Part shown: positions 50,211 to 60,506 of the stretch, piece after piece
Layout: each line of letters starts with the position of its first letter
How positions within the stretch are numbered: position 1 is the stretch's first letter
Assembly: GCA_023267275.1 (NCBI GenBank)
Contig: JAHFNO010000006.1
Location: forward strand, 9,519-73,518
Source of the DNA: Candidatus Nomurabacteria bacterium
GTDB lineage: Bacteria > Patescibacteriota > Minisyncoccia > Phycocordibacterales > UBA9973
Length of the DNA: 64,000 nt
Direction of reading: 5' to 3'
Made by a program: the position numbers and the translations under genes
Notes under the pieces: generated by a model
What the model was told of the DNA's origin: nothing
The model's database searches: none
Seen by the model: the letters and a program-made list of their open reading frames with translations, nothing else

Positions 50211-50512
50211 ACCCGCACACTTACTTTTTTATTACTCTCATGTTTTATGTATATGTTTTGAAAAGTAAAAAAGATGAAGAATTGTACATTGGTTCAACCA
50301 ATGATCTTAAGCGTAGAATAAAAGAACATGAGAGTGGAGAGAGTTTTTCAACAAAGCTGAGGAGACCTTTTGATTTAATTTATTACGAAGCATATAAAGA
50401 TGAGAAGGACGCAAGAAAGAGAGAGTCATCATTGAAACTTCGTGGAAGGTCTCGTTTTCATTTAATGCAAAGATTAAAAAACTCTCTCCTATAAAAAAGT
50501 AAGTGTGCGGGT
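50211..50512. mobile_element. 302-bp unit: GIY-YIG gene between perfect 22-bp inverted repeats
   Basis: acccgcacacttacttttttat (50211-50232) / ataaaaaagtaagtgtgcgggt (50491-50512). Confidence 0.65.
50240..50494 (+). CDS. GIY-YIG nuclease family protein
   Basis: YVYVLKS...LYIGSTNDLKRRIKEH...YYEAY...ARKRE. Confidence 0.95.
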   Translation: MFYVYVLKSKKDEELYIGSTNDLKRRIKEHESGESFSTKLRRPFDLIYYEAYKDEKDARKRESSLKLRGRSRFHLMQRLKNSLL

Positions 50513-51439: not shown

Positions 51440-52039
51440 TTATTTTTGTGTATCTTCAACAAGTGGAACACCAGAAATTTCTGAGAGACGTTGCAATGTA
51501 GCCTCACCGCGCAACTGAGCACTTGGAAGAAATGTCCATACATCGCCAGTGTGTGTTGGTGGAACATCACTCGCTACTATTTCACCGGAAGGAAATACCC
51601 AGCGTCTAAAATATTCAGATGCCCAGTTTGTAGTACAACGAGGATCTTCACCGGGAACATTTGGAGCGATAGAACAAATTTCTGGAGCTTTTGCACTTGT
51701 TATAGAAATGCCTTTTGGAAAAGTCCATGTCGGATAACTTTCAATTTTATTTTCATCACAAATAGGGAAGCGGCTTCGATCAGCATGTTCGCATTCTTTA
51801 TACAAACCCTCTGCTGTAAGTTTTTGTCGAGATGCCTCGAACCATTTTTCTTGTTCTTGGCAGTGTGGACACCAAAATGCTCCGTAGAAAGCCACGCCTT
51901 CTTTTACCAATGCTTTTGCAAAAGTATCGTATTTACCCGAAGTTGATGAGCCACGTATAACAATCGTCATCATGACGATGATTGCAACCATGACAAGAAC
52001 GAAAATAATAAGACGCGAATTTTTTGTTTCTGTTTTCAT
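51440..52039 (-). CDS. Membrane-anchored thioredoxin-like protein
   Basis: FYGAFWCPHCQEQ, IESYPTW; adjacent to dsbB. Confidence 0.85.
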   Translation of the reverse strand: MKTETKNSRLIIFVLVMVAIIVMMTIVIRGSSTSGKYDTFAKALVKEGVAFYGAFWCPHCQEQEKWFEASRQKLTAEGLYKECEHADRSRFPICDENKIESYPTWTFPKGISITSAKAPEICSIAPNVPGEDPRCTTNWASEYFRRWVFPSGEIVASDVPPTHTGDVWTFLPSAQLRGEATLQRLSEISGVPLVEDTQK

Positions 52040-52193
52040 TTGTTGATTATAACCCACTTTGATTTTGAGCGACAGACAAGTTGTTTCTTGATTTAAAGGT
52101 TGTTTTATGGTATTTTCGAGAGGTTAACAAATATCCCTAAATCCGCGGTAGCGGATCGGGCGAACAAATTCGCTCGAAGAGAATTTGTTTTAG

Positions 52194-52266
52194 CCGCCCG
52201 TAGCTCAGCTGGTAGAGCAGCTCCCTTTTAAGGAGAGGGTCGCAGGTTCGATTCCTGCCGGGCGGA
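52194..52266 (+). tRNA. tRNA-Lys (anticodon TTT)
   Basis: Acceptor CCGCCCG/CGGGCGG, TAGCTCAGCTGGTAGAGC, loop CT-TTT-AA, GGTTCGATTCC. Confidence 0.95.
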
Positions 52267-52310
52267 CACTTACAAAAATGAGCTCGACTTTTAGGTCGAG
52301 CCATTTTTGT

Positions 52311-52463
52311 GTGTCCGCCCGGAGAAAGCCAACTTCTCATTCAGCAGAATGACTCTTGGAGTAAGGCTTTCGTCAGGAATCGAAAGACTTTTCGTTACCG
52401 AAGTTTACTTCGGTCGAAAAGTATCTGGCGACGTGGTCGCCGATCCGTGTACTCACTTCCTGC
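52311..52463. repeat. tRNA-associated structured repeat (Lys locus)
   Basis: Contains split reverse complement of the tRNA 3' end; shares CAGGAATCGAAAGACTTTTC and CGATCCGTGTACTCACTTCCTGC with 58303-58433. Confidence 0.75.
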
Positions 52464-52505
52464 TGCATTCAATAACTTTCGATAAGAGTACTCGCGATCC
52501 TGCTT

Positions 52506-53255
52506 TTATTTATATTGTATCTGTATTCCACCCGGCACAATTTTCATACCTTTGATCTCTTTCCCAGACTGCATTTTTTTACGGAGCACGTATTTCTTAA
52601 AAATTTCATCGAGTAGAGGGTTTACCTTATCTTTTGCTTTCCAGGTTAAAAGGAGCCCCGCGTCGATCTTTCTTGTTTCTTTTGGTATTGTAAGAAAATC
52701 TCCATTCTGAACAATAGTCCCAGAAACTTTTACATCTACGGTCGAAACAATAGTTGCTTTAAAAGTAAGATGATCACCTTCCTTGTTTATTTCGATATTG
52801 TAGAGTTCCGATTTGTCACCCTTTTCTTTCATACTTGTTACAATCATATCTTCAAAACTTTTTCGAAATTCTGTCAGATTTATCACTACCGGTGGATTTT
52901 CCACTTTTTTCATTTCAGCTTTTTTATCCAGACCCGCAATTATTTTTTCCGGAATCGGTTTTGGCGAGTAGGGAATACTTTCTGTGATGAGCAATTTTGC
53001 TGGTGCGGGTTCTAGTTTGTCGATATAGGTTGCTTCAATTTCTTTTTTCAACGTGTCGTGCGATACAAGCGTGCTTGTAGTATCACTCACTGTTTTTGCA
53101 GATTGCTCGGTTTTAGGTTTTTCAGTTTTGTGATGATTTTGTTGTTCGGAACTTTCGCCAGGGTGCATTAACATAGCTCCTGCGAGCACTGCCGTTTTAA
53201 AAATAGTGCCTCGTTTATTTTCAGCTTCTTTGTGTATTTTTTTGAATCCTTCCAT
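52506..53255 (-). CDS. Hypothetical protein
   Basis: 249-aa ORF; TATAAT 6 nt before ATG. Confidence 0.7.
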   Translation of the reverse strand: MEGFKKIHKEAENKRGTIFKTAVLAGAMLMHPGESSEQQNHHKTEKPKTEQSAKTVSDTTSTLVSHDTLKKEIEATYIDKLEPAPAKLLITESIPYSPKPIPEKIIAGLDKKAEMKKVENPPVVINLTEFRKSFEDMIVTSMKEKGDKSELYNIEINKEGDHLTFKATIVSTVDVKVSGTIVQNGDFLTIPKETRKIDAGLLLTWKAKDKVNPLLDEIFKKYVLRKKMQSGKEIKGMKIVPGGIQIQYK

Positions 53256-53330
53256 TCGGCTATTATATGCCTATTTCAAAACTGAATCAAAAGCTTTTTG
53301 TTTTGACAGACTTTGTGTATGATGCGAGCG

Positions 53331-53810
53331 ATGACAAAAACACACGAAGCAGTCCTTATTCTTCCCGACATTCGCAGCACACACAATGTGGGTGCTATTT
53401 TCCGTACGGCAGATGCGCTCGGAATTGCAAAGATATATCTTGTTGGAACCACGCCAGCACCGCTCGACCGATTTGGACGAGTGCGGAGCGATATCGCAAA
53501 AACAGCACTTGGTGCTGAAAATACTGTGCCCTGGGAATCAAAGGCCACACTTGCACCGCTACTCACAAAACTAAAAAAAGAAGGATTCACCATCGTCGCA
53601 ATCGAGCAATCAGAAAAATCGGTTGATTACAAAAAAGTAAAATCGAGCGAGAAAACGGTATTTATTGTAGGAACAGAAGTCACTGGTCTGCCAAAATCGG
53701 TTTTGCAAAAATGTGACATTATTGCTGAGATTCCAATGGCGGGAATGAAAGAATCACTCAATGTGTCGGTGGCAACAGGTGTGGCACTGTTTCGTATATT
53801 GGGTAAATAG
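53331..53810 (+). CDS. SpoU/TrmH family RNA methyltransferase
   Basis: IRSTHNVGAIFRTADA, VGTEVTGL, IPMAGMKESLNVSVA. Confidence 0.93.
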   Translation: MTKTHEAVLILPDIRSTHNVGAIFRTADALGIAKIYLVGTTPAPLDRFGRVRSDIAKTALGAENTVPWESKATLAPLLTKLKKEGFTIVAIEQSEKSVDYKKVKSSEKTVFIVGTEVTGLPKSVLQKCDIIAEIPMAGMKESLNVSVATGVALFRILGK

Positions 53811-53890
53811 GTACAATTTTTAATTTTGTAAACAATGTTTTAATATCCAAATATTTTAAAAATTAAAAATGGAAAAATTATAAAATTCAT

Positions 53891-54913
53891 TTAGTATTCT
53901 TTTTGATGTACTGGGCAAAAGTGCGCACTGCGTCCGCCAACAACGATGCGGTGAATTGTTCCACTGCATCCGCGTTTTTTACACGGTGTTTTTGCGAGGC
54001 GATAGGCATTGTGCTCGTGACTGAAATCGCCACGCGTGCCATCGATTTGTCGATAGTCACTCGTAGAATCACCACGAAAATCGATGCCTTTTTTAAGTAC
54101 ACTTTGCACCGCATGAAAAAGCGCGAGCGCTTTTTCATGCGGAATTTTTGCCACCACAGAAAGCGGATGAACACCAGCGAGCCAAAGTGCTTCGTCGGAA
54201 TAAATATTGCCAACACCAGAAAGTATCGATTGATCCATGAGTACTGATTTTATTTTTCCTTTTGGTTTGCGATTGATACATTCGCTAAATTGTTTGAAAT
54301 CGAAATGCTTTTCGAGTGGCTCTGGTCCAAGATTGTCGAGATGCCTGCCCGAACGGCTGAAGCCATTCAGTCGGGCGGGTTTTGTAGCGTGTGCATCTAC
54401 TGTGGAGAGGAGAGTGACTTTCGCAAATTTGCGCACATCGGAGAGTACCAAACTTTTTCCATTGGTAAACGTAATTACAAAATGGAGAAATCTATTGAAT
54501 GGATCACGTAATGCACCATTCTTTTCTTTTGGGCTCGGTTCCCAGTATTCAACTTTTGACTTTACGCTTTCAGCTTTAGACCTCTTGATGTACGTTCCGT
54601 ACATCAAGTGCCCAGTCATTTTCATATGAATGAGAATAGTCTTACCCGAGCACGAGCCGTCGTGCTTTAGGGTCTTTTCATTTGAAAGATTGATAAGAAT
54701 ATTTTTTGCTCGGCGTTCAGCAGAAACAATCTTTGCTCCATGCACAGATTTTTTGAACTGCTCGAAAAAGGGGAGATACTTGATTGAATCTTTGTAATCT
54801 GGACGATTGATATTTTTGCGTGCTAAATCAGTCCACACCGCTGAGATGGTGAGTCCAACAACAGTCTTCTTGAGACCGTTCACTGTAGTTTGTACTTCGG
54901 GGAGTTCGGGCAT
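53891..54913 (-). CDS. mutM: Formamidopyrimidine-DNA glycosylase
   Basis: MPELPEV, HMKMTG, DVRKFA, LGPEPL, LMDQ..SGVGNIYSDEAL, C-terminal Zn finger; carries short in-frame insertions. Confidence 0.97.
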   Translation of the reverse strand: MPELPEVQTTVNGLKKTVVGLTISAVWTDLARKNINRPDYKDSIKYLPFFEQFKKSVHGAKIVSAERRAKNILINLSNEKTLKHDGSCSGKTILIHMKMTGHLMYGTYIKRSKAESVKSKVEYWEPSPKEKNGALRDPFNRFLHFVITFTNGKSLVLSDVRKFAKVTLLSTVDAHATKPARLNGFSRSGRHLDNLGPEPLEKHFDFKQFSECINRKPKGKIKSVLMDQSILSGVGNIYSDEALWLAGVHPLSVVAKIPHEKALALFHAVQSVLKKGIDFRGDSTSDYRQIDGTRGDFSHEHNAYRLAKTPCKKRGCSGTIHRIVVGGRSAHFCPVHQKEY

Positions 54914-54919
54914 AAAAGG

Positions 54920-55162
54920 TTAATAATCCTGATATGTATTGTCGTCTCGATATCCGACGTCAAGAATTGCAGATTCGTGTCCATCTCTTTGGAAAATGAT
55001 CCGTACCCTCCCTATGCGAACTCGAAACTTATTTTTTGAATCTTTTAATTTCTTGCAATGAAGCCCGGAAAGATCATCCCGTAGGATGCGGGCGACAGTT
55101 TCTTCAATGAGAAGACGCATTCCAGGGTCTATCTTTTTTAAGAACTTATCGATTTTGTTCAT
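54920..55162 (-). CDS. RelE/ParE family toxin
   Basis: KKLKDSKNKFRVRIGRVRIIF...DVGYR; overlaps the upstream antitoxin. Confidence 0.85.
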   Translation of the reverse strand: MNKIDKFLKKIDPGMRLLIEETVARILRDDLSGLHCKKLKDSKNKFRVRIGRVRIIFQRDGHESAILDVGYRDDNTYQDY

Positions 55163-55412
55163 GCTTTCTCAGGCGTTTCAAACTCGCCAAAACCTCTTCT
55201 GCGGGGACTCCGCCTTTTCTGATCTTTGTAAAATCAACAAGCGTTTTCCATGCACCTTCGTCACCCCATTCGTCGACAGGAGCGGAGATTTTGAGGATCG
55301 GTTTTGATCTGCGGACAATGGTAAATGACTTGCCGAGAGCCACGGCGTTGATATATTTATCTGAGTTTTCCCGGAATTCTTTAAAACCAATGATATGTGA
55401 TTTGATAGCCAT
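55146..55412 (-). CDS. Phd/YefM family antitoxin
   Basis: IIGFKEFRENSDKYINAV..GKSFTIVRRSKP. Confidence 0.82.
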   Translation of the reverse strand: MAIKSHIIGFKEFRENSDKYINAVALGKSFTIVRRSKPILKISAPVDEWGDEGAWKTLVDFTKIRKGGVPAEEVLASLKRLRKHEQNR

Positions 55413-55444
55413 ACACAAAGATTATCTTAAGATAATCTTTGTGT
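55413..55444. promoter_or_regulatory. Perfect 32-bp palindrome, probable TA operator
   Basis: acacaaagattatctt|aagataatctttgtgt, between the minus-strand TTGACA (55447-55442) and the antitoxin ATG. Confidence 0.8.
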
Positions 55445-55523
55445 CAACCGTTGGTATATTACGCTCTTACTTATTATTATTGACAAAAAGTTTTTATGCA
55501 GTAGTGTGAAGAAAAACCATTTC

Positions 55524-56057
55524 ATGAACGAACAAATACTAGCATTTTGGCAATTGTACGATCAATACGTGCAAACAGAAAATAAGGATATAAGACCGAG
55601 ACTCTCAAGTCTTCTTAGTGAGATTGAAGAAAAAGATCGGAGAAAACAGCTTTTACGACCTGAAAAAGGCTGGAATACAATTCTTGCATGGCAGGTATTA
55701 CGTACACAAGAATTTATTTTTTCTGATAACGTAATTTTCAGACTATACACAGGAGATGTTCTTGTTTGGGAACCGCATTGGGATCGTGATATTTTACTCA
55801 CACGATTTCCGATGGAAACCAATATTATTTCAGGAAGAATTTTAAAACCAGGATTTGAGATGACTCACGAAGATAAAGGAGAGCTCTCTGATTACGAATG
55901 GAATCAACAAATACGCAGTCTTGGCATCACAAATGAAAAAGGTCTGTATCTTCCTGTTTATGAATCCGATACGCTCAAAAAGTTTTGCTTGTCACAAATT
56001 GCGGAGATGCAAAAAGGAATATTTTCTTACCTAGGAAAAGAATTAAATATTTTTTAA
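55524..56057 (+). CDS. Hypothetical protein
   Basis: ~177-aa ORF with TTGACA upstream. Confidence 0.65.
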   Translation: MNEQILAFWQLYDQYVQTENKDIRPRLSSLLSEIEEKDRRKQLLRPEKGWNTILAWQVLRTQEFIFSDNVIFRLYTGDVLVWEPHWDRDILLTRFPMETNIISGRILKPGFEMTHEDKGELSDYEWNQQIRSLGITNEKGLYLPVYESDTLKKFCLSQIAEMQKGIFSYLGKELNIF

Positions 56058-56086
56058 TTAAAAACCATCCAGAATATCGGGTGGTT

Positions 56087-56665
56087 TTATTTTTTTCCTA
56101 AAATTTTAAGGGCCTCTTTAATACGCGCGTTTGTTCCGATGATTTCGGCAGGCACTTCTTTGAGTGCATCGCGAGCTTCGTTTTGAGAATAGCCGAGTGC
56201 TTTGAGTGCTTCAACAACATCAGACTCGGCGCGGAGTTCATGTGGATTTTCTTTTGTATCGGCATGCGCTTTGAGCTTGTCGCGCAATTCGAGCACTACT
56301 TTTTCTGCAGTCTTGCGGCCGATGCCAGAAACTTTTGTGAGATAACTCGTGTCGCCAGTAGCGATTGCTTTCTTGAGTGTGTTGGTCGATGTTGCACTCA
56401 AAATTGCGAGTGCACCTTTTGGTCCGATACCAGAAACAGAAATAAGGAGCTGAAAAAAATCTTCTTCCTCGCGAGAAACAAATCCGTACAAATCGAGTGC
56501 ATCTTCACGTACGACAAGATAGGTAAAAAGCGATGCCGGTGTATCTTCGCGAAGTTGGGCAAGGGTATCGGTTGAACAATATACTTTGTAGCCAACGCCA
56601 CGAACGTCGATGACTGCAAATTTTTCACTGAGTTCGATGATGGTGCCTGTTAAATGCGATATCAT
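56087..56665 (-). CDS. ruvA: Holliday junction branch migration protein RuvA
   Basis: DVRGVGY, VREDALDLYGF, VSGIGPK, GIGRKTAEKVVLELRDK, ALKALGY. Confidence 0.97.
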   Translation of the reverse strand: MISHLTGTIIELSEKFAVIDVRGVGYKVYCSTDTLAQLREDTPASLFTYLVVREDALDLYGFVSREEEDFFQLLISVSGIGPKGALAILSATSTNTLKKAIATGDTSYLTKVSGIGRKTAEKVVLELRDKLKAHADTKENPHELRAESDVVEALKALGYSQNEARDALKEVPAEIIGTNARIKEALKILGKK

Positions 56666-56670
56666 GAACA

Positions 56671-56830
56671 TAGTATACAGTATTCAGTATACGGTATACA
56701 GTATAGGTATCAGACCCTTGAATATCTAAAGTATTTCTGGTATAGTGTTTTTGCCTAAGTATGGTGTCTCGTATTTGGGTCGTTTTATTTCATACTGTAT
56801 ACGAAATACCGTATACTTAATACTAATTCA
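56671..56830. repeat. Inverted pair of 7-nt-period GTATAC-type arrays in the divergent ruvA/rpsT promoter region
   Basis: gtataca gtattca gtatacg gtataca gtatagg ... catactg tatacga aataccg tatactt aatacta. Confidence 0.75.
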
Positions 56831-56834
56831 ATCT

Positions 56835-57089
56835 ATGCCAATCACCAGTTCAGCAAAAAAGGCCATTCGCGTTTCAAAGCGCAAGAAGCTCATCAACGAT
56901 CGTCGCACAAAAAACATGAAAGAGGCGATCAAGAAGCTTGAAAAAACACTTAAAGCAGGAACAAAAGAAGAGGCAGCAAAGATGCTCCCAGCTGCGTTCC
57001 AAGCTGTAGACAAGGCTGCAAAGCGCGGTGTTATCAAGAAAAACACAGCATCTCGCAAAAAAGCTCGCCTTGCCCGTCTTACAAAGTAG
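56835..57089 (+). CDS. rpsT: 30S ribosomal protein S20
   Basis: MPITSSAKKAIR...DKAAKRGVIKKNTASRKKARL. Confidence 0.97.
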   Translation: MPITSSAKKAIRVSKRKKLINDRRTKNMKEAIKKLEKTLKAGTKEEAAKMLPAAFQAVDKAAKRGVIKKNTASRKKARLARLTK

Positions 57090-57241
57090 GAATAGGGTCT
57101 CGCCCGTATCATAAAATAATCACGTAAACCACAAGAGTACTAAAACAAGAGAACATAAAAACAACAACAAATGCCCCTAACGGGGCATTTGTTGTATACT
57201 GTTTTTGTATTTATTAGCTAATATCTAGAGCCTAATTATCT

Positions 57242-57499
57242 ATGAGCCTAATAAACTTTTATGGAACCGAATGTCCTCATTGTAAAACAATGGAGCCAAT
57301 CATTGCAGTGTTTGAAAAAGAAACAGGATTGACCGTGGAGCGCAAAGAAGTCTGGCACGATCAAGACAATATGAAAGTCATGGACGGATACGACAAGGGC
57401 GTGTGTGGGGGAGTGCCGTACTTCTTCAATACCGAAACAGGTAAATCGATTTGCGGAGAAGCGACTGTGGAAGAGCTCAAGGAATGGGCTGGAAAATAG
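57242..57499 (+). CDS. Thioredoxin/glutaredoxin-like protein
   Basis: FYGTECPHC, CGGVPYF. Confidence 0.88.
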   Translation: MSLINFYGTECPHCKTMEPIIAVFEKETGLTVERKEVWHDQDNMKVMDGYDKGVCGGVPYFFNTETGKSICGEATVEELKEWAGK

Positions 57500-57599
57500 T
57501 TGTAAAATAAGGATAAAATGATAAAAGCCATATGTATTGACATACGGCTTTTATTGTGCTATCATACGGCTAAACTTTAAAAAACAAAAAAACGCAACG

Positions 57600-58043
57600 A
57601 TGGCAAAAAATTTGAATGTTGACCCAAAAAAGGTTCAATCTATTAAGAGCTTGATTGCAAGCTCACCACTCGCATCAGAGTTCACAAGGAAAATTTGTTT
57701 CCAATTGTTGGAGCAATATCAAAAAACAGGAAATACTGTTTCGATCACACTTTTTGAATCAGAAGAAATTTCCCGTTTTGATATGATTAAGGCAACGGGG
57801 GAGTTTGAAGATTTGAGCAGTAGTGCTCGTTGTACAAAATTAAATACTGTGGTTGCAAAACTCGGTATCTCAATGGAATTTATGGCTGGACTTGGCTACT
57901 ACAACGAAGATCAGCAATTTTTCAACAAGTTTATTCCCACTGAAAATGGGGACAAAGCCGCAACCACTTTTTGGTTCTGCATTCATGGTCAGCATCATAA
58001 AAGTGAGCATCTTATATTTAAAGAAAGGTTTGAAATGGTATAG
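57600..58043 (+). CDS. Hypothetical protein
   Basis: ORF from ATG 57600, with TTGACA-17-TATCAT promoter at 57537. Confidence 0.65.
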   Translation: MAKNLNVDPKKVQSIKSLIASSPLASEFTRKICFQLLEQYQKTGNTVSITLFESEEISRFDMIKATGEFEDLSSSARCTKLNTVVAKLGISMEFMAGLGYYNEDQQFFNKFIPTENGDKAATTFWFCIHGQHHKSEHLIFKERFEMV

Positions 58044-58191
58044 ATAATCATTTTAATCAATTACACAAAACATCCGTATACAACGCGGGTGTTTTTTATT
58101 CTCTATTTACTAATTTAGCAAAATAACGTATAGTCTAACTCTGTATAAGTGTTCCCTTAGCGTGTTAATTCGTTTTTTGGCTAATAAATAT

Positions 58192-58263
58192 GATCCTGTC
58201 GTTCAACGGATAGGACACTCCCCTGCGAAGGGAGAAATGCAGGTTCGATTCCTGCCAGGATCA
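58192..58263 (+). tRNA. tRNA-Arg (anticodon GCG)
   Basis: Acceptor GATCCTG/CAGGATC, anticodon arm CTCCC-CTGCGAA-GGGAG, GCAGGTTCGATTCCTGC. Confidence 0.93.
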
Positions 58264-58302
58264 CAAAAAGAAAAAGCACCCATTAGGGTGTTTTTTCTTT
58301 TT

Positions 58303-58475
58303 GTGTCCTGAGCGAGCCAACTGTTTGGCTCGCGGCAGGAATCGAAAGACTTTTCTATGTTTTGTTTACAAAACAAGAAAAGTACCTGCCTATGTAATAG
58401 GCGATCCGTGTACTCACTTCCTGCCAGGATCACCAAGTCGTGACTACTCACGAGGAGCTTAAAATGCTCTAAATA
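58303..58475. repeat. tRNA-associated structured repeat (Arg locus, copy 1)
   Basis: Split antisense tRNA 3' end, internal hairpins, then sense TTCCTGCCAGGATCAC. Confidence 0.75.
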
Positions 58476-58578
58476 TAGCCAAATCAAAAAACTACCCGAT
58501 TGGGTAGTTTTTTGATTTGGCTATTACTGTTTATTTGCGAGAGAAGTAAATTCAAACCCCTGAGGGCTATGACATCCT

Positions 58579-58848
58579 ATGTTTAATGAAACTAAGTACA
58601 CTATCGCCATAAGTATGGGCGAGGCTTTGGAAGAGCATCAAAAACGTCTTGAAGAAGAGATTAGAAAAACATATTATAACGGGCAAAGAGAAAAAGGTGA
58701 TGAGTTGACCCGTGAAAAAGTGAATACGCTTTATGCTTACTTTCCTGTAAAAATAGACCACGAAAATGATTCTAATAATATGTCACTCGTTAAAAGATTT
58801 AATGTGTTAAGACAAGGTATTGAGAAGTTGTTTCGACGGAAAAAATAA
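58579..58848 (+). CDS. Hypothetical protein
   Basis: 89-aa ORF between the tRNA-Arg-like repeats. Confidence 0.5.
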   Translation: MFNETKYTIAISMGEALEEHQKRLEEEIRKTYYNGQREKGDELTREKVNTLYAYFPVKIDHENDSNNMSLVKRFNVLRQGIEKLFRRKK

Positions 58849-59024
58849 TTTTCACTTTTAATAAAAATACTCAAACATATCAAAATTTCGAGTTTTAAAT
58901 CGGTATCGTTCCAGAAAACATAAGACTACCAAACATGTTGATTTGTTAGGAAATAATTTTACATAATAAAACCCCCTGACAATTTTGCCAGAGGGTTTGA
59001 ATATTTTATTCCCGCTTTACTTAA

Positions 59025-59570
59025 TTACTGCACCGTTTTTTTCCTAAAAACAAGAAAATCCGGTATCAACAATTTTAACGAAACTTCCTTGTTGCCAGCT
59101 TCCTTCATTCTCTCTAATGTTCCGAGTGGGTCAATCAGAAAACTAACACCAACAAGGACAATTAGAAACCCTACTAAAGTGAGGAGAACAAATCTGAAAA
59201 CCTCGTCACCAGCAGTGCTTAAGAAATGATCTTGTCCGGGTGTTATCCCGTGAGAATCATGGTGACACTCAACTTTAATCCCGTTAGGAGTCGATTTTAC
59301 ATAATAAAACCGATGGTCTTCATTAACATTGGGGAAAACCGTAACCCAGCTTTTTTCAACATTTGGATAAAAGTAAGATTTTACTATATCAAATGATGTT
59401 AAATTTAAACCAGCCACCGGAATACCCCGCCCGTTTTCAAAGCTGTATTTTTGAGGCTCAAATCTTTGATTCTCAATGTATGCTTTGATTGGGAAAAGTG
59501 GTAGTACGATTAGAGCTATGCTCATAATACGTAGCAGTGCTGCGCGATGCGCAAGAACAAACTTTTTCAT
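59025..59570 (-). CDS. Hypothetical membrane protein
   Basis: 181 aa, N- and C-terminal hydrophobic segments. Confidence 0.6.
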   Translation of the reverse strand: MKKFVLAHRAALLRIMSIALIVLPLFPIKAYIENQRFEPQKYSFENGRGIPVAGLNLTSFDIVKSYFYPNVEKSWVTVFPNVNEDHRFYYVKSTPNGIKVECHHDSHGITPGQDHFLSTAGDEVFRFVLLTLVGFLIVLVGVSFLIDPLGTLERMKEAGNKEVSLKLLIPDFLVFRKKTVQ

Positions 59571-59643
59571 TTAATACGTTTTTGAGTTGAACATTGTTTT
59601 GGTGCCTTAGACCCGTGTCTAAGACTATCCGGTAGTTATTTCT

Positions 59644-60135
59644 TTAGGATTTTGGCTTCATTAACGTGTCTTCGTTTATACTCCTCAAGCATTCCAAGTC
59701 GTGTTCCTTTTCAGCAATTTTCTGAAAAGCATTCCTTGTTGCTTGTGGTGTTCGGCCGTTAGATAAATACCAATCATACCCATCTCCGCTAAACCTTTTG
59801 CGGAGAAACCTCGCAGTACTATCCGGCCCCAAAGTCCGCTCAAGTACCAAAATGGCGTCATGCGTAAGCTTGAGGTAGTTTGTGTGGTCTATCCAAGCTA
59901 TACGTGTAAACGCTATTTTAATTGCGCTTGCTTTCAGGGTGTCATTTGGACGCACTAGGTACGTCTTCATGGTGTCCAGGGATAATCGTTCAACTAGCGA
60001 CACTCTTACACCAGGGTAAACCGTAGTGTCGTCAGTGATTATAATTCCAGCGTTACTATTTTTCGCGCTGTTTTTTTGATCGCAATAAGCGATTGTGCCT
60101 ATAACAAGCAAAGCGGCGATGATAAAGCTTCTCAT
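59644..60135 (-). CDS. Hypothetical exported protein
   Basis: MRSFIIAALLVIGTIAYC signal-like start. Confidence 0.6.
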   Translation of the reverse strand: MRSFIIAALLVIGTIAYCDQKNSAKNSNAGIIITDDTTVYPGVRVSLVERLSLDTMKTYLVRPNDTLKASAIKIAFTRIAWIDHTNYLKLTHDAILVLERTLGPDSTARFLRKRFSGDGYDWYLSNGRTPQATRNAFQKIAEKEHDLECLRSINEDTLMKPKS

Positions 60136-60432
60136 ATGTCTATTGTGTTGTTTTTGTGGCGTAAAGCCGTTTTTTGAATTGGTTGCCCCAAGGGCTATCA
60201 AGCCATTCAGGCAACCAATTCAAGTTAAAGCAACCTTATTTTCAAAGGATATACTTATGTTTAGTATAACATATACATCATAAAAAGTCAAGCAAAATAA
60301 CCTTGTAAAATAAGGGTAGAAAAGCTAAGAAGAGTATAAAAATGGGGAATTTTGACCCAAAATCTGCCATAGATTATATTAACTAATCGTTATTTCCTTA
60401 GCGAACTTTTTCAGCAGAAAAAGATTTGTGAC

Positions 60433-60506
60433 CGATACGTGTACTCATTTCCTGTCAGGATCACATCCTCGTGATGGCTCATGAGGAGTTTAAGAAGCTC
60501 TACATA
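60433..60506. repeat. tRNA-associated repeat (Arg locus, partial copy 2)
   Basis: 74-nt ungapped match to 58402-58475 (about 59/74 by manual count), including TTCCTGTCAGGATCACA. Confidence 0.75.

Follow-up and report, generated by a model that had tools for sequence, protein, structure and literature searches.

We identified a family of gene-less elements of about 170-200 nt that lie behind tRNA and other conserved genes in a Candidatus Nomurabacteria genome (G000) and in related CPR bacteria. The elements have a constant layout with a fixed right junction, their antisense segments track the adjacent gene, their hairpins covary, they are polymorphic among genomes, and at a protein-coding target the displaced gene ends downstream differ by synonymous codons. 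In the reading that we put first and hold at about even confidence, this is a non-autonomous mini-element that would integrate as a folded single-stranded circle by means of an enzyme supplied from elsewhere. The window analysed here is the whole 64,000-nt stretch of the source genome (G000:C23:9519-73518).

The window contains two copies, in which the tRNA 3' end is followed by a terminator hairpin, a split antisense segment with a bulged hairpin (hp1), a two-hairpin core and a direct repeat, all on the plus strand. The first copy follows tRNA-Lys(UUU) (52194..52266; RF00005 by cmscan, 68.8 bits; labelled "Stop" by ARAGORN), whose sequence from the T loop to the 3' end is here called segment S. 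It comprises a terminator-like hairpin (52268..52310; by fold) capping the S:antisense stem, the antisense of the acceptor 3' strand (52311..52322; by sequence and fold), hp1 (52323..52373), the antisense of tRNA positions 54-64 (52374..52384), a type 1 core of hairpins 2 and 3 (52385..52443; by alignment and covariation, with a match to model R1), a small linker hairpin between core and repeat that is present in some copies only (52444..52456), and a truncated, 7-nt direct repeat of the tRNA-Lys end (52457..52463). The hp1 loop of this copy holds an unrelated, inserted REP-like hairpin (52337-52361) with a 23-mer found in four exact genomic copies, and hairpins related to its terminator occur at the Glu and Ser loci of G000. 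A contig from one sequencing run is identical to window positions 52235-53070, and this run may stem from the source sample. A small stand-alone GIY-YIG nuclease gene of a family near-universal in relatives lies 1.7 kb upstream of tRNA-Lys (50240-50494).

The second copy follows tRNA-Arg(GCG) (58192..58264; ARAGORN and cmscan) and consists of a terminator-like hairpin (58265..58301; by fold), the split antisense (58302..58346, with the acceptor part at 58302-58310 and the T-arm part at 58335-58346), hp1 between the antisense halves (58311-58334), a type 1 core (58347-58404; by alignment and covariation), the linker (58405-58417) and an 18-nt direct repeat of the tRNA-Arg 3' end (58418..58435). 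The flank 3' of this repeat resembles the flank directly behind the element-free Arg(GCG) gene of a relative (L025), and the repeat is likely to be the displaced native tRNA end. About 2 kb further on, beyond three ORFs without a Pfam match, lies a remnant made up of a type 2 core, a linker and a second Arg repeat (60395..60465, the repeat at 60449-60465). A remnant of a serine-recombinase junction motif lies behind the Arg repeats. When the tRNA end and the element are folded together as DNA, the z-scores are -13.6 (Lys) and -14.3 (Arg); the Arg element without the gene also folds (z = -8), its antisense pairing with the downstream repeat. Over window positions 51900-58800, only the two tRNAs reached the threshold in an Rfam cmscan, and no family was found for the element.

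Every motif that the first-pass annotation quoted at the two loci is present at its position, but it overlooked the direct repeat at the end of each copy. It also took the antisense of each copy to match its own tRNA. Within the window, matching specific to the locus is visible in the acceptor parts only, because the Lys and Arg tRNAs are identical at positions 54-64; for the T-arm part it is visible at other loci.

Elsewhere in G000, the element also stands behind the Trp, Val(GAC), Thr(TGT), Leu(CAG) and Asp genes, at a Gly locus and at the end of what we take, from its 3' motif, to be tmRNA, and the second core type lies behind other tRNAs. Antisense of positions 54-64 with at least 10 of 11 matches within 130 nt was found at nine of the 45 parsable tRNAs, compared with 4 of 2250 shuffled flanks, and in eight of these nine no non-cognate tRNA matches equally well. 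The tRNA-Asp gene (G000:C4:5831-5903, minus strand) and the tmRNA-like end (G000:C8:~26550, minus strand) have non-canonical T loops, which their antisense arms copy exactly; an Asp-like odd T loop also occurs in L189. Two distinct tRNA genes of G000 have an anticodon loop of the Lys(UUU) type (G000:C27:14438-14512, minus strand, and window 52194-52266), and ARAGORN with default settings listed no tRNA-Asn in this genome, the contamination of which is 4%. An OLD-type ATPase/TOPRIM gene (L006:547-2325, on G000:C29), likely to be defence cargo, has tRNA-Gly(TCC) on one side and stacked Gly-matched elements on the other.

A pattern scan of other genomes detected at least 124 loci, and 126 distinct matches were analysed. 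Among the matches listed, 82 of 126 lay within 130 nt of a tRNA whose T loop could be parsed and were kept, and 44 were dropped (stacked copies, tmRNA, contig ends or no tRNA found). The 82 copies kept among the matches listed span 30 anticodon labels; their antisense agrees with their own tRNA at positions 59, 60 and 62-64 in 95.6% of comparisons, against 51.9% after shuffling (maximum 59.5% in 5000 shuffles), and the acceptor antisense scores 5.9/7 against 4.2. In the same 82 among the matches listed, the direct repeat agrees with the tRNA end at a mean of 10.8/14 positions (shuffled, 7.6) and is perfect in 22. The idea of a tRNA-targeting repeat family with host-adapted ends, formed from the window alone, is thus right in that the ends of these listed copies track the adjacent tRNA far above the shuffled level, but it is too narrow, because the sister core also targets tmRNA, 5S rRNA, ftsZ, topA and truB.

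A covariance model built from the copies, the scan that the first-pass annotation had in mind, matched in 44 of 61 related genomes, with 0-16 copies each, and the core-2 pattern matched in 36 of 61, with zero control matches. The related records found by the pattern scan are labelled as Patescibacteria groups or as unnamed bacteria, apart from one Bacteroides bin. In near-complete genomes, the element is carried by 22 of 39 tRNAs (G041), 9 of 31 (G019) and 14 of 45 (G000), and by 0 of 39 and 0 of 35 in G046 and G010, respectively. Arg(GCG) alleles occur both filled and empty among genomes, and at some loci copies are stacked in tandem. Such a patchy, filled-or-empty distribution is the pattern of mobile insertion, not of a conserved host RNA. 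Cores within one genome are more similar across different tRNAs than shuffled pairs (0.587 versus 0.447; 22 pairs, kin not independent), and the effect is weaker between genomes at the same tRNA (0.503 versus 0.448; 103 pairs, kin again not independent); retargeting or module exchange and target-bound lineages seem both to occur. In viral contigs, two core-1 patterns gave no matches and no carrier of the element was found; two matches to the core-2 pattern, one in a coding frame and the other in GC-rich DNA, lack the element layout and were rejected.

The geometry of insertion is best seen in the 118 core-2 copies. Of these, 86 have a tRNA or tmRNA on the same strand no more than 170 nt away, and for 25 there is none in the neighbourhood. 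Wherever a tRNA or tmRNA is present within 500 nt upstream, the copy is on its strand (91/91), and none of the 118 has a tRNA neighbour on the opposite strand only. In a T-loop class, 43 of the 85 tRNA-linked copies, the antisense ends at tRNA position 54, and in 35 of these 43 the downstream repeat starts at position 57, which defines a fixed right junction. In a second class (about 25 of 85), the antisense ends near positions 70-72 and the repeat begins, by eye, at 73; here the repeat is short for the junction test, and five copies were resolved. In the modal tRNA case, hp1 is located between positions 65 and 66. At tRNAs it follows the crossover by 8-9 nt, and in 47 of 70 parsable copies it lies 9 nt before the T-loop motif. 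Beyond the junction the antisense extends by about 3 nt, and it directly adjoins the first helix of the core. At positions where S and the downstream repeat differ, the antisense agrees with the upstream S in all cases (16/16).

Core-2 copies were also found at the ends of ftsZ (L184, L222, L233 and L252) and topA (L256, and a decayed case in G000), in a duplicated half of 5S, within 5' fragments of tRNAs and, in frame, within truB; the gene labels of L222, L233, the G000 topA and truB were checked, and L184, L252 and L256 were labelled by peptide likeness. All four ftsZ loci have one common junction, which stays sharp even if the native end departs from the antisense at its very first base. 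At L222, L233 and L252, the residues encoded by the downstream ftsZ copy are unchanged but are specified by other synonymous codons; both ends have therefore been under coding selection. At L252 the downstream copy reaches the stop codon, and its changes include Ser TCA/AGC and stop TAA/TAG; the upstream copy at this locus coincides with the end of a contig, so it could itself be one repeat of a stack. The L184 copy is decayed. Judging from these sequences, it is likely that the element brings its own ftsZ end and displaces the native one downstream. At topA of L256, the two copies of the gene end are nearly identical, and the split antisense is kept together with the hp1 spacing seen at tRNAs (8 nt by inspection), so the spacing is a property of the element.

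Some cores are inserted with a stock hairpin and without antisense, as at 5S, the tRNA 5' fragments and truB. The truB gene of G041 (L398:10287-11177, minus strand) carries, besides the in-frame core-2 insertion, an apparent second palindromic in-frame insertion that strikes us as reminiscent of Rickettsia palindromic elements. In the same genome, at L397:9085-9450 and L410:1830-2080, partial copies of tRNA 5' halves lie upstream, and hairpin-plus-core cassettes replace about 2 nt of the D arm; going by their sequence, these cassettes represent a putative 5'-side version of the system.

The hairpins covary: in an alignment of 45 sequences, 94% of cells pair, against 73% after shuffling, with compensatory changes on both sides at 9 of 9 pairs of hp1 and 5 of 6 pairs of hp3. 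The invariance of the hairpin 2 stem is circular, as the search pattern fixed this stem. These data bear out the earlier description of a shared core with differing loops but preserved pairing, and some loop sequences are themselves conserved (CTGC in 56 of the listed hp1 loops, and mostly GTA in hp3). GTA triloops are stable loops of the DNA type, and that of hairpin 3 leans towards single-stranded DNA, with RNA also compatible. As to the strand, G:T outnumbers A:C in hairpin 2 (38 versus 10, counts that are not independent events), which favours the tRNA-sense strand, and the folding energy is lower for this strand in 69 of the 82 copies among the matches listed (likewise not independent events). 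No strand bias in G:T versus A:C was found for hp1, hp3, the terminators or the antisense stem, and local GC skew, a noisy measure, gave no replication-strand bias (22/44 versus 42/70). Taken together, the sequences point to the tRNA-sense strand as the probable folding strand.

The co-occurring recombinase or nuclease that had been predicted was found neither beside 78 loci nor by genome co-occurrence. The 419 ORFs around these loci are housekeeping genes, with one match to a reverse transcriptase (RT) and no recombinase or integrase. Y1 HUH genes are present in 27 of 61 genomes and missing from G002, G005, G008, G019, G030, G036 and G041, which have 7-14 copies of the element each; the RAYT-like genes of G000 are flanked by other palindromes. 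Large serine recombinases (38/61), GIY-YIG (60/61) and RNase H (59/61) do not track the element. Among five element-rich genomes, IS110 (PF02371) was detected in one, with no element match near it, and RT in three, with no RT match in G036 and G041, both rich in copies. The element-rich G019 and G041 lack matches to Y1, large serine recombinases and IS110 and have in common only a XerC/D-like gene, which element-free genomes also possess. A contrast in gene content between G000, G019 and G041 on one side and G046 and G010 on the other left 6 of 1210 ORFs, none of them a recombinase and none a usable candidate; RNase HI, which had emerged from it, was rejected as an artefact of a missing G010 contig. 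No circle junction or excision joint was found in the contigs of two sequencing runs, and contigs drop rare forms. The insertion may be the work of a housekeeping enzyme or of a transient visitor, or it may require no dedicated enzyme. As a separate observation, the 1-Mb G000 genome has eight large serine recombinase matches (for example, C6:30145-33725, C8:10327-11646, C1:4933-6279 and C3:23972-25522), several of which converge on tRNA-Leu, -Thr or -Gln ends and have in common a conserved motif upstream and a distinct junction motif.

A folded recombination site, one of the possibilities raised by the first-pass annotation, is our leading reading, with a probability near one half. Against it stand the failure to find the predicted enzyme partner, a circle or excision joint, a replication-strand bias or a viral carrier in the data searched, the cores inserted without antisense, the contig-end position of the upstream ftsZ copy at L252 and the near-identity of the two topA ends at L256. 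In the proposed mechanism, the gene-end copy carried by the circular element would pair with the antisense to form a stem that has the terminator as one cap and the core as its other cap. Pairing to the antisense, about 3 nt ahead of the crossover and 16 nt past it, would serve to read the target strand; an enzyme acting in trans would perform one strand exchange, which replication would resolve. The predicted outcome is that the gene end of the element is in place, the gene is intact and has a new terminator, and the native end is pushed downstream. The weakest step is the origin of new targets: fold-back copying or repair may rewrite the antisense, which is a guess, and stock hairpins may be exchanged among copies within a genome.

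The absence of a co-occurring enzyme is also what would be expected if replication template switching among palindromes produced the elements as small inverted triplications, with homologous recombination or natural transformation accounting for their spread. By sequestering the upstream copy, the antisense would make the element loop out and thereby be retained. The sense-antisense-sense layout, the patchwork-like stacks of modules and the greater similarity of cores across tRNAs within a genome (0.587 versus 0.447 in the 22 pairs) agree with such an origin, to which we assign a minor but appreciable chance. However, it does not account well for a junction that is sharp to one position even where the native ftsZ end is mismatched from the first base, nor for the fixed hp1 spacing and the conserved CTGC (hp1) and GTA (hp3) loops. 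An RNA function has a small chance in our view: as a read-through transcript, the element could act on tRNA maturation through its antisense arm or duplicated end, or it could serve a protein as guide RNA. It agrees with such a role that all 91 core-2 copies with a tRNA or tmRNA within 500 nt upstream are on its strand, and the rrA, rrB and rrF TLRs of E. coli are reported (PMC8144298) to be transcribed and processed and to bind Hfq and CsrA. Yet the element is absent from complete relatives, its copies are stacked and decayed, the terminator lies ahead of the antisense and no Rfam match was obtained over the window region searched, while the displaced coding ends and the in-frame truB copy are left unexplained.

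The T-loop crossover, the replacement end borne by the element, the cargo between repeats at some loci (window 58436-60390; the OLD-type nuclease at the Gly locus) and the somewhat greater likeness of same-tRNA cores across genomes (0.503 versus 0.448) could instead be scars of ordinary integrase-driven islands, namely attL/attR arms left by internal deletion, with each lineage bound to one target. We regard this as quite improbable, given near-identical cores at many different targets in one genome, no integrase beside any of the 78 loci, and serine-recombinase islands in G000 that have different junctions and no antisense. It is very improbable that the antisense represents the primer-binding site of a tRNA-primed or tRNA-templated retro-element, or cDNA of a mature tRNA: the 18-nt Arg repeat does end in a CCA that the tRNA-Arg gene lacks, and G000 has three RT genes, but the repeats show no enrichment for CCA (4 of 34 near-perfect ones, compared with 8 of 82 genes, among the matches listed), protein genes (ftsZ, topA) are targeted, and RT matches are missing from G036 and G041 despite their many copies. 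Reverse transcription of mature tRNA is thus largely ruled out by the CCA counts and the ftsZ and topA targets.

The mobile mini-element that we favour can be compared with several known systems. TLRs of E. coli (RtT, lysT-lysQ, rrA/rrB/rrF) are gene-less, lie behind tRNA or 5S genes and end in an 18-19-bp copy of the host 3' end; they have been known since 1978, and no function is known for most of them, CsrA binding being described for rrA/B/F (PMC8144298, in the part drawn on). That part of the source mentions neither an antisense arm nor mobility for TLRs. In the E. coli tyrT and lysT regions we found the same order of parts as in the CPR element, and in six of seven flanks of tyr and lys tRNAs an imperfect T-arm antisense precedes the hairpin core (raw scores of 9-10/12). 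The layout is shared, with a weaker antisense arm in the TLRs; a short motif is common, by eye, to TLRs and hairpin 3 of the CPR element. The CPR element differs in its near-perfect antisense split by a bulged hairpin, its polymorphism and its protein-gene targets, and there is no extended sequence similarity. A TLR-type copy of the 3' end is present at Arg (18 nt) and in one 5S case, whereas that at Lys has only 7 nt, and the Rfam RtT model had no match at E<=5 over window positions 51900-58800. The feature, which the first-pass annotation did not recognise as any type, has no Rfam family, but its layout is shared with the TLR/RtT repeats. Matches of E. coli TLR queries to phages and plasmids look like chromosomal pieces and were set aside.

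By analogy, the CPR element appears to work most like the ends of IS200/IS605 or attC sites, yet it lacks defining features of either class. IS200/IS605 use a folded single-stranded substrate and read the target by DNA-DNA pairing to a guide at the hairpin foot (PMC6006769); in engineered IS608, a hairpin divides the guide and targets of 12-17 nt can be read (PMC5934647). A folded single strand with guide pairing at the hairpin foot is likewise common to IS200/IS605, their gene-less derivatives and REP/RAYT. In the CPR element, however, most of the long pairing on the folding strand falls 3' of the junction, whereas in engineered IS608 it is 5'; furthermore, the CPR element carries a copy of the gene end, shows no fixed GT[AG]G foot in the alignments and does not co-occur with Y1.

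The attC sites, like attP(+) of CTX phage, form long imperfect hairpins with unpaired features, and a single exchange is resolved by replication. The CPR element resembles attC in having a hairpin as the likely recombination substrate and in forming tandem arrays, sometimes with cargo, but it has no integron integrase or dif context, and its stem is tailored to each target gene. No attC R-box consensus was seen on inspection of alignments A1 and A2, and no tyrosine recombinase was found among the neighbour genes of the 78 loci, the XerC/D-like gene being the only one in G019 and G041. In tRNA-targeting integrative islands, attP carries the gene 3' end, crossover takes place in the T loop, the gene is restored and the native end is displaced. 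The element-borne replacement end is shared with the CPR element (ftsZ at three of four loci; antisense 16/16), but the latter is about 170 nt long, has no integrase inside, places one core family at more than 30 targets and contains an internal antisense. Both antisense halves pair with one strand, unlike the guides of IS110 bridge-RNA elements, which pair with both, and unlike tRNA-primed retroelements there is no consistent CCA copy and no linked RT. Literature searches, with poor coverage of subscription papers, returned no description of this element family in CPR bacteria. The new results are a junction and an hp1 spacing that stay fixed at non-tRNA targets, displaced ftsZ ends that differ by synonymous codons, and an enzyme screen with a negative outcome.

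In the CPR copies, which are young, polymorphic and sufficiently numerous, the rules of the system become visible: where the junction falls, that the antisense resembles a guide, and that the gene end is replaced. These rules give a concrete and testable origin for the TLRs of E. coli K-12. A broader proposal, which we put forward tentatively and consider rather doubtful, is that the CPR elements and the E. coli TLRs belong to a pan-bacterial class of gene-less, retargetable elements in which one folded DNA strand would be both cargo and guide: the split 16-19-nt antisense would programme insertion at almost any conserved gene end, the carried copy would repair the gene, and a host or visiting enzyme would do the strand exchange. 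Should insertion depend on an enzyme, this would be a DNA-guided recombinase occurring in nature and recognising 16-19 nt through base pairing, which has so far been attained by engineering of IS608. In these very small genomes, the elements also change the ends of tRNA genes and of ftsZ and delimit segments that carry cargo.
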